NCBI RefSeq assembly: GCF_041886205.1 | Contig: NZ_CP169029.1 | DNA length: 64,000 nucleotides | Strand: one strand, 5' to 3' | DNA from: Escherichia coli | Lineage (GTDB): Bacteria > Pseudomonadota > Gammaproteobacteria > Enterobacterales > Enterobacteriaceae | Shown: one piece after another, positions 3,290 to 61,137 of the stretch | How the letters are laid out: the number at the start of each line of letters is the position of its first letter | Position numbering within the stretch: the first letter of the stretch is position 1 | Position numbers and translations under genes: made by a program | The notes under the pieces: generated by a model | The model's database searches: none | Told to the model about the DNA's origin: nothing | Seen by the model: only the letters and a program-made list of their open reading frames with translations

Positions 3290-5791
3290 ATGGCCCTGAT
3301 TGTGGAATTTATTTGTGAGCTACCTAACGGCGTACATGCGCGTCCGGCAAGCCACGTTGAAACGCTGTGTAATACTTTTTCATCACAAATTGAGTGGCAT
3401 AACCTGCGCACTGACCGCAAGGGCAACGCCAAAAGCGCCCTTGCGCTGATTGGCACCGATACGCTGGCGGGCGATAACTGCCAGTTACTGATTTCCGGGG
3501 CCGACGAACAGGAAGCGCACCAGCGTTTAAGCCAATGGCTGCGCGATGAATTCCCCCACTGCGATGCGCCGCTGGCGGAAGTTAAATCTGACGAACTGGA
3601 ACCACTGCCGGTTTCACTGACCAATCTGAATCCGCAAATTATCCGCGCCCGCACCGTGTGCAGCGGTAGTGCAGGCGGCATTCTGACGCCGATCTCTTCT
3701 TTAGATCTCAATGCGCTGGGTAATCTTCCCGCAGCCAAAGGCGTTGACGCCGAGCAATCCGCACTGGAAAACGGCCTGACGCTGGTACTGAAAAACATTG
3801 AGTTTCGTCTGCTGGATAGCGACGGTGCTACCAGCGCGATTCTGGAAGCGCACCGATCCCTGGCTGGCGATACTTCCCTGCGCGAACATTTACTGGCAGG
3901 TGTCAGCGCCGGATTAAGCTGCGCCGAAGCAATTGTCGCCAGTGCGAATCACTTTTGCGAAGAGTTCGCCCGTTCCAGCAGCAGCTACCTGCAAGAACGT
4001 GCCCTGGACGTACGCGACGTCTGCTTCCAGTTACTCCAGCAAATCTACGGTGAGCAACGCTTCCCGGCACCGGGCAAACTGACGCAGCCCGCCATTTGTA
4101 TGGCTGATGAACTGACTCCCAGCCAGTTCCTCGAACTGGATAAAAATCACCTCAAAGGTCTGTTACTGAAAAGTGGCGGCACCACCTCACATACCGTAAT
4201 TCTTGCCCGTTCGTTCAACATTCCGACACTGGTTGGTGTAGATATTGATGCCCTTACTCCGTGGCAGCATCAAACGATTTATATCGACGGCAACGCCGGG
4301 GCGATTGTGGTTGAGCCAGGGGAAGCCGTGGCCCGTTATTATCAGCAAGAAGCCCGCGTACAGGACGCTCTGCGTGAGCAACAGCGTGTCTGGCTGACCC
4401 AACAAGCGCGTACCGCTGACGGTATCCGCATTGAAATTGCCGCTAACATCGCTCACTCCGTGGAAGCGCAGGCCGCATTCGGCAATGGTGCGGAAGGCGT
4501 TGGTTTGTTCCGCACTGAAATGCTCTATATGGATCGCACCAGTGCACCGGGTGAAAGCGAGCTGTACAACATTTTTTGTCAGGCGCTGGAGTCTGCAAAC
4601 GGACGCAGCATTATTGTGCGCACTATGGACATTGGCGGCGACAAACCCGTTGATTATCTAAACATTCCCGCAGAGGCAAACCCGTTCCTCGGTTATCGCG
4701 CCGTGCGTATTTATGAAGAATACGCGTCGTTATTTACCACACAACTACGCTCGATCCTGCGCGCCTCCGCTCACGGCAGCCTGAAAATCATGATCCCGAT
4801 GATCTCCTCAATGGAAGAGATCTTATGGGTGAAAGAAAAACTGGCAGAAGCCAAACAGCAACTACGTAACGAACACATTCCGTTTGATGAGAAGATCCAG
4901 CTCGGCATTATGCTGGAAGTGCCGTCGGTGATGTTCATCATCGATCAATGCTGTGAAGAGATTGATTTCTTTAGTATTGGTAGTAATGACCTGACGCAAT
5001 ATCTGCTGGCAGTGGATCGCGATAACGCTAAGGTTACTCGTCACTACAACAGCCTGAATCCGGCATTCTTGCGGGCGCTCGATTACGCCGTGCAAGCGGT
5101 GCATCGCCAGGGCAAATGGATTGGTCTGTGCGGTGAACTGGGAGCGAAAGGTTCCGTGCTGCCGTTGCTGGTCGGTTTAGGGCTGGATGAACTCAGCATG
5201 AGCGCACCATCAATTCCGGCGGCGAAAGCGCGGATGGCGCAACTTGATAGCCGCGAATGCCGCCAGTTGCTCAACCAGGCAATGGCCTGCCGTACTTCGC
5301 TGGAAGTGGAACACCTGCTGGCACAATTCCGCATGACACAACAGGACGCACCGCTGGTCACCGCCGAGTGCATCACGCTGGAAAGCGACTGGCGCAGCAA
5401 AGAAGAAGTACTGAAAGGCATGACCGATAACCTGCTACTGGCAGGCCGCTGCCGCTATCCGCGTAAACTGGAAGCCGACTTGTGGGCGCGCGAGGCCGTT
5501 TTCTCTACCGGTCTGGGCTTTAGTTTTGCCATTCCACACAGCAAATCAGAACACATTGAGCAATCCACCATCAGCGTGGCGCGTCTGCAAGCGCCGGTGC
5601 GCTGGGGCGATGATGAAGCGCAATTCATCATTATGTTAACCCTGAACAAACACGCTGCGGGCGATCAGCACATGCGCATTTTCTCGCGCCTCGCTCGCCG
5701 CATCATGCACGAAGAATTCCGTAACGCGCTGGTTAACGCCGCCTCTGCCGACGCTATCGCCAGCCTGCTGCAACATGAACTGGAACTGTAA
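3290..5791 (+). CDS. ptsA: Multiphosphoryl transfer protein (HPr-EI-EIIA fusion) of fructose-like PTS
   Basis: 833-aa ORF with an EI-like PEP-utilising core ([21 protein letters not shown]) and C-terminal EIIA-like domain; divergent from frwC. Confidence 0.9.
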
Positions 5792-7624: not shown

Positions 7625-7722
7625 GCCTGATGCGCTACGCTTATCAGGCCTACGCAATCTCTGCAATATATTGAATTTGCGTACCTTTGTAGGCCGGATA
7701 AGGCGTTCACGCCGCATCCGGC
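7625..7722. repeat. RIP/BIME-type element: two inverted REP sequences flanking an AT-rich IHF-site-like spacer
   Basis: gcctgatgcgctacgcttatcaggcctac ... aatatattgaatttgc ... gtaggccggataaggcgttcacgccgcatccggc; same architecture recurs at 23051-23148 and 43868-43966. Confidence 0.8.
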
Positions 7723-23050: not shown

Positions 23051-23148
23051 CGCCTGATGCGCTACGCTTATCAGGCCTACGTCATATTGCAATTTATTGA
23101 ATTTGCACGAACTTGTAGGCCGGATAAGGCGTTCACGCCGCATCCGGC
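23051..23148. repeat. RIP/BIME-type element (inverted REP pair with IHF-site-like spacer)
   Basis: gcctgatgcgctacgcttatcaggcctac ... tgcaatttattgaatttgca ... gtaggccggataaggcgttcacgccgcatccggc. Confidence 0.8.
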
Positions 23149-23874: not shown

Positions 23875-24126
<252 letters not shown>

Positions 24127-24130
24127 CTAA

Positions 24131-26488
<2,358 letters not shown>

Positions 26489-28744: not shown

Positions 28745-28812
28745 TAATTGCATTATGCCCCGTACTTTTGTACGGGGTTTGTACTCTGTATTCGTAACCA
28801 AGGGGTCAGCTC

Positions 28813-29343
28813 GTGACAACTATAGTAAGCGTACGCCGTAACGGCCATGTGGTCATCGCTGGTGATGGTCAGGCCACGTTGGGCAATACCGTAATGAAAG
28901 GCAACGTGAAAAAGGTCCGCCGTCTGTACAACGACAAAGTCATCGCGGGCTTTGCGGGCGGTACTGCGGATGCTTTTACGCTGTTCGAACTGTTTGAACG
29001 TAAACTGGAAATGCATCAGGGCCATCTGGTCAAAGCCGCCGTTGAGCTGGCAAAAGACTGGCGTACCGATCGCATGCTGCGCAAACTTGAAGCACTGCTG
29101 GCAGTCGCGGATGAAACTGCATCGCTTATCATCACCGGTAACGGTGACGTGGTGCAGCCAGAAAACGATCTTATTGCTATCGGCTCCGGCGGCCCTTACG
29201 CCCAGGCTGCGGCGCGCGCGCTGTTAGAAAACACTGAACTTAGCGCCCGTGAAATTGCTGAAAAGGCGTTGGATATTGCAGGCGACATTTGCATCTATAC
29301 CAACCATTTCCACACCATCGAAGAATTAAGCTACAAAGCGTAA
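28813..29343 (+). CDS. hslV: ATP-dependent protease subunit HslV
   Basis: 176-aa [34 protein letters not shown]. Confidence 0.95.
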
Positions 29344-43867: not shown

Positions 43868-43966
43868 GCCGGATGCGGCGCGAACGCCTTATCCGGCCTA
43901 CAAAAGTTTGCAAATTCAATAAATTGCAGAATTCATGTAGACCTGATAAGCGAAGCGCATCAGGCC
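43868..43966. repeat. RIP/BIME-type element (inverted REP pair with IHF-site-like spacer)
   Basis: gccggatgcggcgcgaacgccttatccggcctac ... tgcaaattcaataaattgca ... gtagacctgataagcgaagcgcatcaggcc. Confidence 0.8.
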
Positions 43967-48945: not shown

Positions 48946-49029
48946 GTAGGCAGGATAAGGCGTTTACGCCGCATCCGGCATTTGAGCAGGATGCCTGATG
49001 CGACGCTGATAGCGTCTTATCAGGCCTAC
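48946..49029. repeat. REP pair (BIME)
   Basis: gtaggcaggataaggcgtttacgccgcatccggca ... gcctgatgcgacgctgatagcgtcttatcaggcctac. Confidence 0.8.
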
Positions 49030-55053: not shown

Positions 55054-57812
<2,759 letters not shown>

Positions 57813-57816
57813 ACAC

Positions 57817-58038
57817 TGCCGGATGCGGCGCGAGCGCCTTATCCGGCCTACAGGTCGGCAACAGTTGTAGGCCTGATAAGACGCGACAGCGTCGCATCAG
57901 GCATTGATTGCCGGATGCGGCACGAGTGCCTTATCCGGCCTACAGGTCGGCAATAGTTGTAGGCCTGATAAGACGCGACAGCGTCGCATCAGGCATTGAT
58001 TGCCGGATGCGGCACGAGCGCCTTATCCGGCCTACGGG
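57817..58038. repeat. Tandemly repeated BIME unit (~92 bp x ~2.4) between rhaA and rhaD
   Basis: Unit tgccggatgcggcgcgagcgccttatccggcctacaggtcggcaacagttgtaggcctgataagacgcgacagcgtcgcatcaggcattgat repeated at 57817-57908 and 57909-58000 with 3 substitutions; partial third copy to about 58038. Confidence 0.85.
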
Positions 58039-58078
58039 TCGTGCATCTGACAACACCGAATTTACAGGAACACAGAAC

Positions 58079-58903
58079 ATGCAAAACATTACCCAGTCCT
58101 GGTTTGTCCAGGGAATGATCAAAGCCACCACCGATGCCTGGCTGAAAGGCTGGGACGAGCGCAACGGCGGCAACCTGACGCTGCGCCTGGATGACGCCGA
58201 TATCGCGCCTTATAAAGACAACTTCCATGCACAACCGCGCTATATCCCGCTCAGCCAGCCCATGCCTTTACTGGCAAATACACCGTTTATTGTCACCGGC
58301 TCCGGCAAATTCTTCCGTAACGTCCAGCTTGATCCTGCAGCTAACTTAGGCGTCGTAAAAATCGACAGCGACGGCGCGGGCTACCATATTCTCTGGGGGT
58401 TAACCAACGAAGCCGTTCCCACTTCCGAACTTCCGGCTCACTTCCTTTCCCACTGCGAGCGCATTAAAGCCACCAACGGTAAAGATCGGGTGATCATGCA
58501 CTGCCACGCCACCAACCTGATCGCCCTCACCTATGTACTGGAAAACGACACCGCGGTCTTTACTCGCCAACTGTGGGAAGGCAGCACCGAGTGTCTGGTA
58601 GTGTTCCCGGATGGCGTTGGCATTTTGCCGTGGATGGTGCCCGGCACGGACAAAATCGGCCAGGCGACCGCACAAGAGATGCAAAAACATTCGCTGGTGT
58701 TGTGGCCCTTCCACGGCGTCTTCGGCAGCGGTCCGACACTGGATGAAACATTCGGTTTAATCGACACTGCAGAAAAATCAGCACAAGTATTAGTGAAGGT
58801 TTATTCGATGGGCGGCATGAAACAGACCATCAGCCGTGAAGAGCTGATTGCACTCGGTGAGCGTTTTGGCGTTACGCCACTATCCAGTGCGCTGGCGCTG
58901 TAA
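58079..58903 (+). CDS. rhaD: Rhamnulose-1-phosphate aldolase
   Basis: ORF-track entry 57908..58903 has its 5' part inside the BIME repeats; trimmed to [24 protein letters not shown] (274 aa). Confidence 0.9.
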
Positions 58904-59267: not shown

Positions 59268-60661
59268 TCAGAAGAAGTATTTAAAGCGAACGCGTGCGCC
59301 GTAACGGTCATCAGTATCATCACCGTGTTTTTTATCACCGTCGCTATCCAGAATGGAGTAATACGTCCCGAGGTAAATATTAAAGTTCTCCATATCCATC
59401 ACATTAGCGAACTGATAAGACGCATGAATGGTGTGAATGGTGTACGTCCCTTCATCATCAATCCAGCAGTCGTTATCACAAACTACACCGCTGAATTCAT
59501 CAATCTTATTGTGCGCGTAGATATAACCGAGCTCGAAACGTTTCCACAGCGCGTTAATCCCGGCAGTGAAATCTTTCTCATTATTAGCATCTAAATAGGC
59601 GGTATTAAGATTAACCACAATGCCATTGTCCGGATCCATTTTCAGGCCGTTCCAGGTCATGCTCATACCATAGCCGGTACGATCGGACTGATCGACAAAA
59701 TTACCCTTGCTATCGGTATAACCATAAGCATTATTTACCACGTTAGCTTCCATCGCTGCGGAAACGGTGAATTCTTCCGTCGGCGACCAGGCAATTACCG
59801 GACGCAGATAAGCAACATTTTTCTGCTGCTCCATATCGCGTCCATGATAATTACCGTCATTATATAAAGATGTTCCGTCTTCAAGTAACGTGTTTAATTC
59901 AAAATACCAGTTATCAAGTTGTTTGCTGACGAGGAAATTACCGCCAGCGTTAGAACGCCCGCGGCCCTCTTTCATCATATAGATATAACCGCTGCCATCG
60001 TCATAAAGATCGTTCGCAGTATTACCGGAATGTTCAACAAAGGTATCCTGATTCAACGGGAACATATCGTAGGCTTCAAAACGGCCTACTTTGACCTCCA
60101 GTCGTTTTCTTTGCCAAAGAAGAATACCGCATCATCGATATTTACTGAACCGTACATATCTCCCAGCGGTTGTGCGGAGAACCCGGCGAAATAACCATTA
60201 TCCAGTTTTCGCATACCATCAAAACCTAACAGAATACGACCATTGAGATTCCACTGTTCATTAGTGGGATCGCTATTCACATCAGCGTTGGTCATTGCCA
60301 GCAGGCCATGATTACTTTCCGCATCCATATTAAATTCTACGTCACCGTAGATTTTTAAATCGCCATAACCTGAAAGCAAAAGATTAGGTGAGGTGGCATT
60401 TTTCTTTGCAGATTCCGCCGTTGTCTGTCCATTTACCGGCGTATTGCCCTGGGCAGCCTTAATTTCGCGGATCTCAGCGGCTTGTTGTATCTGCAGCTGT
60501 TTAACCTGGCTCTCTGCTTTTGCCGCCCGCATTTCTGCCGCTTCCAGGCGTTCTTCCAGCAATGCCATGCGTTGTTCCAGCGTTAAATGCTGTGTTTTTG
60601 CCATACCGGTACTACATGCCAATAATAAACCGATGGCTAAAGATAATGTCGATTTTTTCAT
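59268..60661 (-). pseudogene. Outer-membrane porin-like gene (signal peptide + coiled coil + beta-barrel), split by a frameshift
   Basis: ORF 60086..60661 encodes signal peptide MKKSTLSLAIGLLLACSTGMA and a heptad coiled coil; ORF 59268..60065 encodes a Gly/Tyr/Asn/Asp-rich barrel-like domain ending ...RVRFKYFF; the frames overlap between about 60088 and 60134. Confidence 0.55.
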
Positions 60662-61137
60662 TATTTACGTTCCCTGAAATAAAGGAGGCCCTACGCTTTC
60701 CAAAAGGAATACGTATATAGAGAAATATAAAGTGTGCACTTTCGAATTTTTAATCCAACTTCAGCAGGCCGATGGATAGTATCCCGCCGCATAATATGAG
60801 TAAATCCGCTGATTTCCTGGAACGTGAGGAATATAACAATAGTGCCGTTTTTAACTAAATATCGTAAAAAATATGAGATATGATTCACGCTGACACATAA
60901 GCCAAAAATATAAATAACGTTTAGACAAATTATCCGAGACATTTAAACATTTACAAAATCATTAAATAATGATTTTTTATTCACAACATTTATTTAACCC
61001 ATCAATATGTGCCTTACACCGCAAAATTTATCCTTCACTCTGCCTTATATTGTCACGACTTCACGACATATCCGCGCTCATCACAAAACCGCCCCACCGT
61101 TACAATTAACAATAATATTTTTTCATGGAGTCCAATA

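Follow-up and report, generated by a model that had tools for sequence, protein, structure and literature searches.

In the window, as we call the whole 64,000-nt stretch of Escherichia coli DNA that was analysed, the genes rhaA, rhaD and then rhaM follow one another in this order. Most of the 266-bp spacer between the first two is occupied by a tandem repeat array. Tandem Repeats Finder returned it as the one array of the region (57817-58041; period 92, 2.4 copies, 96% matches, no indels, score 422), and it is extragenic, lying wholly between the stop of rhaA (57812) and the ATG of rhaD (58079). In the closest complete genome, that of E. coli LHM10-1, a 1.1-kb stretch matches at 99.9% identity, and the genes are annotated in the same way (PGAP). 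An earlier note had described a unit of ~92 bp, repeated head-to-tail about 2.4 times at 57817-58038 with only three substitutions between the first two copies. The copy number is the same in our analysis, in which the array runs to 58041, and in an alignment copy 2 (57909-58000) departs from copy 1 (57817-57908) by exactly three substitutions, at unit positions 14, 19 and 46 (57830 G / 57922 A; 57835 C / 57927 T; 57862 C / 57954 T). Two further differences appear in the partial third copy (58001-58041).

The 92-bp unit is made of two palindromes in opposite orientation, GCCGGATGCGGC..GCCTTATCCGGCCTAC and GTAGGCCTGATAAGACGC..GCGTCGCATCAGGC. Parsed unit by unit (Table 1), the array reads Y-Z2-Y-Z2-Y with alternating orientations, in agreement with the composite BIME unit of two inverted REPs that the earlier note had placed between rhaA and rhaD. 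All five REP units carry the GTAG/CTAC tag. In the Y stem, GC stands opposite TT; in folded RNA this gives a G-U wobble together with an unpaired C/U. Whichever strand is folded as RNA, each REP hairpin has a predicted energy between -17.7 and -21.4 kcal/mol, and the fold of the whole spacer is far more stable than those of shuffled controls (z = -8.1).

Table 1. Features of the rhaA-rhaD region, in window coordinates.
Feature	Position	Strand	Remarks
rhaA (L-rhamnose isomerase) CDS	56553..57812	+	ORF list; PGAP annotation of LHM10-1; stop TAA 57810-57812
5-nt gap ACACT, rhaA stop to first REP	57813..57817	+	identical in 17/17 E. coli alleles parsed
Y-type REP 1, 34 nt	57818..57851	-	GTAG tag on minus strand; hairpin as + strand RNA -21.3 kcal/mol
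Linker AGGTCGGCAACAGTT, 15 nt	57852..57866	.	between CTAC and GTAG ends of flanking REPs
Z2-type REP 1, 36 nt, inverted relative to Y	57867..57902	+	GTAG at 5' end; hairpin -20.5 kcal/mol; matches Z2 half of Rfam naRNA4 consensus
naRNA4 (RF02564) match 1	57870..57940	-	74.4 bits vs gathering score 59.5; spans one Y + Z2 pair
Linker ATTGATT, 7 nt	57903..57909	.	
Non-coding in-frame open stretch, 57 codons from TTG	57908..58078	+	crosses repeats; ORF list and frame check
Y-type REP 2, 34 nt	57910..57943	-	stem pair 13-18 is A-T, vs G-C in Y REP 1
Linker AGGTCGGCAATAGTT, 15 nt	57944..57958	.	
Z2-type REP 2, 36 nt	57959..57994	+	identical to Z2 REP 1
naRNA4 (RF02564) match 2	57962..58032	-	73.3 bits vs 59.5
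Linker ATTGATT, 7 nt	57995..58001	.	
Y-type REP 3 (last), 34 nt	58002..58035	-	stem position 13-18 is an A/C mismatch
Unique spacer tail, 43 nt	58036..58078	+	rhaD Shine-Dalgarno AGGA 58066-58069; conserved within one of two flank lineages
rhaD (rhamnulose-1-phosphate aldolase), 274 aa	58079..58903	+	true ATG 58079; ORF list and all RefSeq annotations fetched

Of the three substitutions that separate copy 2 from copy 1, two affect the partners of a single Y stem pair, which changes from G13-C18 to A13-T18. Such a change is in line with a published comment that REPs vary at some positions yet keep their complementarity there (PMC3333891). Nonetheless, covariation in the Y hairpin was not significant among the 10 distinct Y sequences of the locus: one pair had changed on both sides, and 186 of 500 shuffles did equally well. 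The loop of the last Y REP, GCACGAGCGC, resembles the internal units in its left half (A at 13) and the terminal units in its right half (C at 18). We considered a recombinant of the internal (A..T) and terminal (G..C) types and dropped it, given that a single point mutation explains this REP equally well. We also searched for regulatory signals. No terminator-like site (a G+C-rich hairpin followed by a T run) was found in 57500-58400, and none of the REPs is followed by a T run. No promoter-like site was found in the spacer, the single one detected lying inside rhaD at chance level, and the IHF consensus WATCAANNNNTTR is absent from both strands of the spacer.

The REPs of this array are not peculiar to the locus. 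In the window the REP tail motif CTTATCMGGCCTAC was counted 13 times, where chance would give 0.01, and this assigns the rhaA-rhaD REPs to the genome-wide REP family; five of these 13 occurrences are inside the array, and further loci with the motif lie at 7640-7702, 23067-23128, 43888-43950 and 48946-49029. REPs are described as imperfect palindromes whose stem contains a 2-base mismatch and whose foot is preceded, on its 5' side, by the tetranucleotide GTAG (PMC3333891), and BIME-2 elements as y and z2 REPs in inverse orientation, present in multiple tandem copies and separated by short linkers (PMC3333891, Ton-Hoang et al.). In agreement with these descriptions, the array alternates Y and Z2 over 2.4 tandem copies, with linkers of 15 and 7 nt, the GTAG tag, the stem mismatch and an extragenic position. 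Additionally, each half of the unit can be aligned with its counterpart, the Y or the Z2 hairpin, in the Rfam naRNA4 consensus.

The element is thus of a long-known kind, and its novelty is low, since this very array has already been named, mapped and catalogued. EcoCyc lists the K-12 rhaA-rhaD array as REP299a-i, with nine REPs in a 450-bp spacer. In the Topo-seq data of Sutormin et al. (Table DS3) it appears as 'BIMEs2', 401 bp, rhaA>-rhaD> (PMC6379681), with four gyrase cleavage sites in the Cfx (ciprofloxacin) set, two in RifCfx, one in Micro and none in Oxo (PMC6379681, Table DS3). RAREFAN predicts the K-12 array to be a RAYT-associated REPIN. The anatomy of the array in the window and its identity with that of K-12 are established. 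We consider it very probable that the rhaA-rhaD array is an E. coli BIME-2, the orthologue of K-12 REP299a-i, here in the form Y-(Z2-Y)2, with the origin and the effects proposed below.

Two features of the array could suggest a gene, namely an open reading frame and matches to a small RNA family. A mechanical ORF in the rhaD frame (57908-58903, 331 aa) begins at a TTG and runs through the repeats, which leaves 57 codons open ahead of the rhaD ATG, with TTG/GTG candidate starts, as would be needed for a genuine N-terminal extension of RhaD. However, the open frame is not conserved: its length ahead of the ATG is 57-58 codons in part of the alleles and 39 or 27-30 in others, and it drops to 6 in those of the O104:H4 type. 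The stretch is built of REP sequence, and a Shine-Dalgarno AGGA stands 9 nt ahead of the canonical ATG. Moreover, the N-terminus of RhaD is conserved across genera, directly after spacers down to 4 bp, and all 16 RefSeq records fetched start rhaD at the canonical ATG (825 bp, 274 aa). An N-terminal extension is thereby effectively refuted, and its probability is negligible. The earlier note had cautioned that this reading frame, running through the repeats upstream of the true rhaD start, could mislead automatic start-codon calling; the frame does exist, but PGAP was not misled in any of the 16 records.

The second feature concerns Rfam RF02564 (naRNA4), which matches the array twice above its gathering score (Table 1). 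Read literally, these matches would make the array a gene for naRNA4-like, HU-binding, nucleoid-associated small RNAs, discrete and ~77 nt long, that organise the chromosome, and the original naRNA4 paper reports that HU and naRNA4 condense DNA and that a complementary RNA works too (PMC4550694). Yet both above-threshold matches are on the minus strand, antisense to rhaBAD, whereas the sense (+) strand scores 53.9 and 50.8 bits, under the 59.5-bit gathering score. The model was built on one Y + Z2 pair of REP325, and it also matches an unrelated BIME of the window at 48949-49026 (+) with 78.6 bits; it therefore recognises any Y + Z2 pair, which makes it a detector of the repeat family as opposed to one particular sRNA gene. 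A 2026 follow-up from the same laboratories observed no measurable chromosome compaction by REP325 or naRNA4 (bioRxiv 10.64898/2026.03.23.713779). We rejected an independent naRNA gene at rhaA-rhaD on the strand of the matches and the model's lack of specificity, and regard it as highly improbable. Other REP pairs of the window, at 43903-43944 (+) and 23073-23114 (-), are matched by Rfam ES036/CssrF (RF02751) with 43.6 and 39.6 bits. In effect, the naRNA4 and ES036/CssrF 'sRNA' models annotate REP/BIME units.

With the BIME-2 reading we turn to variation. Tandem BIME-2 copies at one locus are reported to be well conserved, and the copy number of a locus to differ among strains (PMC3333891). 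We read 17 rhaA-rhaD alleles by sequence, namely that of the window and those of 16 fetched RefSeq records. They take the form ACACT + Y-(Z2-Y)n + tail, where n ranges from 0 to 5 and the spacer grows in 92-bp steps from 82 to 542 bp (Table 2). The K-12 MG1655 allele, for instance, has 4.4 copies in 450 bp. The earlier note had expected array copy number to vary between strains, and the comparison across E. coli genomes bears this out, with 1, 3, 5, 7, 9 or 11 REPs. Spacer lengths come in pairs that reflect two unique tails, and hence two flank lineages. In one of them n runs from 0 to 5, and in the other n is 0, 1, 2 or 4; given that short and long arrays occur in both, units must have been gained and lost repeatedly. 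The first REP begins 5 nt past the rhaA stop in all 17 alleles.

For the frequency of these forms, two systematic samples of complete E. coli genomes, 59 chromosomes each, were classed by match span, and the resulting counts (Table 2) are to be read as estimates, given that the classes are based on length, sequence-verified for the 17 alleles only, and drawn from a database rich in K-12 derivatives. In about 17% of the sampled E. coli (e.g. O104:H4), a single Y REP is followed not by Z2-Y units but by an unrelated palindromic element rich in G+C. This foreign element measures ~160-180 bp and reads CCCTCACCCC..CCCTCTCCC..GGGAGAGGGTTAGGGTGAGGGG.

Table 2. Forms of the rhaA-rhaD spacer in E. coli, with estimated counts in two samples of 59 chromosomes (classed by length).
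Form	Spacer	REPs	Sample 1	Sample 2
n = 0	82 or 92 bp	1	12	12
n = 1	174 or 184 bp	3	11	11
n = 2	266 or 276 bp	5	9	10
n = 3	358 bp	7		
n = 4	450 or 460 bp	9		
n = 5	542 bp	11		
n at least 3			17	16
Single Y + foreign element	241 or 260 bp	1 (Y)	10	10

A scan of species-representative genomes yielded 116 usable rhaA-rhaD loci. The spacer measures 4-25 bp in Pectobacterium, Dickeya, Serratia, Hafnia and the Pasteurellaceae, and 34-466 bp in the Enterobacteriaceae, where it holds differing palindromic elements. REP pairs are present in Salmonella arizonae and Citrobacter, and Klebsiella has a REP type of its own. The spacers of Enterobacter (E. cloacae), Lelliottia and Pseudocitrobacter contain the G+C-rich element family of the O104:H4-type E. 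coli. In Superficieibacter electus the spacer (locus positions 3298-3702) holds an independent tandem array, 8.2 copies of 49 bp, built from a different, species-specific REP, and shows that amplification has occurred convergently at this position in a second genus. The rhaA-rhaD position is evidently a permissive landing site that has been colonised repeatedly.

How might such an array have arisen? We propose that a single Y REP is the core state, to which Z2-Y units would have been added and from which they would have been lost repeatedly. Such change probably came about either through the 92-bp direct repeats, by slippage or by unequal recombination between them, or through cleavage and rejoining by TnpA_REP (RAYT). 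Indeed, this REP-associated tyrosine transposase cleaves and recombines BIMEs in vitro, and models for their amplification have been published (PMC3333891).

As for effects, five hairpins in the rhaBAD mRNA would be expected, by analogy with other arrays, to block 3'-to-5' exonucleases and thereby stabilise the upstream rhaBA segment. REPs are classic barriers to 3' exonucleases. The hairpins would also be expected to attenuate transcription into rhaD and rhaM in part, leaving more RhaB/RhaA than RhaD message, and the size of this difference between rhaBA and rhaD-rhaM may depend on the number of units. In the case of REP325, a BIME-2 within an operon, the transcript of the upstream gene yjdM is stabilised and that of the downstream yjdN cut ~8-10-fold; the Rho dependence is partial and pertains to the full array of 12 hairpins only, not to 2-4 hairpins; and a ladder of hairpin-terminated transcripts is produced (bioRxiv 10.64898/2026.03.23.713779). 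Genome-wide, tandem gene pairs with a REP between them show expression biased towards the upstream gene, and the effects of REPs depend on context, with half-lives not uniformly changed (bioRxiv 10.64898/2026.03.23.713779). We regard REP325 as the best experimental model of what such an array does to its flanking genes. The earlier suggestion that the rhaA-rhaD array affects mRNA stability or segmental decay is consistent with the published work on other REP arrays, and on REP325 in particular. Translation could be affected as well. A gene is reported to be translated less when a REP follows its stop codon at a distance below 16 nt (Liang et al. 2015, as quoted in PMC12306157), and the 5-nt spacing between the rhaA stop and the first REP falls within this distance; the stop-proximal REP may thus reduce RhaA translation through ribosome stalling. 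Finally, at the level of DNA, the Y units would be preferred cleavage sites for gyrase, an enzyme reported to prefer Y units and to cleave the K-12 array in vivo (K-12 sites: PMC6379681).

How much any of this matters to the cell can be read in different ways. The array might be neutral DNA, either selfish or prone to slippage, which a permissive spacer tolerates and which has no meaningful effect on rhaBAD expression, its unit number simply drifting. Unit numbers run from 0 to 5, none of the classes dominates, and both flank lineages vary, all of which would agree with drift. So would the comparison between species, given that spacers of 4-25 bp in Pectobacterium, Serratia, Hafnia and the Pasteurellaceae, and several unrelated palindromic families within the Enterobacteriaceae, are what a permissive landing site would be expected to show. 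The reported effects of REPs are, moreover, variable and context-dependent (bioRxiv 10.64898/2026.03.23.713779). However, given the REP325 data, it is improbable that exonucleases and RNA polymerase/Rho take no notice of five hairpins of about -20 kcal/mol within the mRNA of an operon. Neither the invariable 5-nt distance of the first REP from the rhaA stop (17/17 alleles) nor the in vivo cleavage of the K-12 array by gyrase (PMC6379681) sits easily with inert DNA. We therefore hold full neutrality to be possible, although on the doubtful side. At the other extreme, the number of Z2-Y units could be a heritable, fast-mutating dial of the ratio of RhaB/RhaA to RhaD/RhaM, in which more hairpins would give stronger Rho-dependent attenuation and upstream stabilisation, perhaps also acting on local supercoiling via gyrase, and of which the settings would be selected in each lineage and would not result from neutral drift. 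Healthy E. coli lineages have anything from 1 to 11 REPs, and ~17% have the other element, which argues against strong selection on unit number. We consider such a dial improbable. A BIME-2 whose units come and go, and which may influence the mRNA around it, is the reading that we prefer.

Beyond annotation, the importance of this finding is small. With the array labelled as REP/BIME-2, the 57-codon open frame is not taken as coding, nor are the Rfam naRNA4 matches taken as sRNA genes. Food for experiment may lie in the allelic series that nature provides here. With 1, 3, 5, 7, 9 or 11 hairpins in an inducible and non-essential operon, the locus suits tests of REP dose on mRNA stabilisation, Rho-dependent attenuation and gyrase recruitment. 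The question of REP number was raised, for a single locus, by the 2026 study of REP325 (bioRxiv 10.64898/2026.03.23.713779). Further along the window, a carbohydrate porin gene that K-12 is without lies between rhaM and frvA (59268-60662, -). With respect to LHM10-1, the loss of 1 bp from a T run at ~60096/60097 shifts its reading frame, and the C-terminal 265-aa ORF (59268-60065) alone is open; we read this as either a pseudogene or an error in the sequence. Matches at Rfam gathering level at 28758-28815 (+) and 24094-24146 (-), to a ClpQY (hslVU) promoter element and an L31 ribosomal protein leader, are ordinary chromosomal features here.

Among known systems, the closest is K-12 REP299a-i itself, which shares with the window the locus, the Y and Z2 units, the 15- and 7-nt linkers, the 92-bp period, the tail ahead of rhaD and the 5-nt distance from REP to stop. 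It differs in length, with nine REPs, 4.4 units and 450 bp against five REPs, 2.4 units and 266 bp in the window, and its Y loops show a few substitutions (GCACAAGTGC in the internal units of K-12, GCACGAGTGC in the window). BIME-1 elements (Y + Z1; RIP/RIB elements) also contain an inverted REP pair with a Y unit. However, they are single copies with a long conserved L linker and an IHF site, whereas the rha array pairs Y with Z2 through 7- and 15-nt linkers, in tandem and without the IHF consensus. REPIN/RAYT systems have in common with it the inverted REP doublet, the GTAG tag and the stem mismatch. The RAYT (TnpA_REP) gene of K-12 is distant from the rha locus. Binding and cleavage by TnpA_REP require both the GTAG tag and the stem mismatch (PMC3333891). 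REP325, the BIME-2 between yjdM and yjdN, is like the rha array in that tandem Y and Z2 units stand between two co-oriented genes of one operon, and the same covariance model matches both. Unlike the rha array, it has 12 hairpins and a linker of 13 nt, as opposed to 7 nt, within the modelled pair, and the orientation that the REP325 model prefers is, in the rha array, antisense to the operon.
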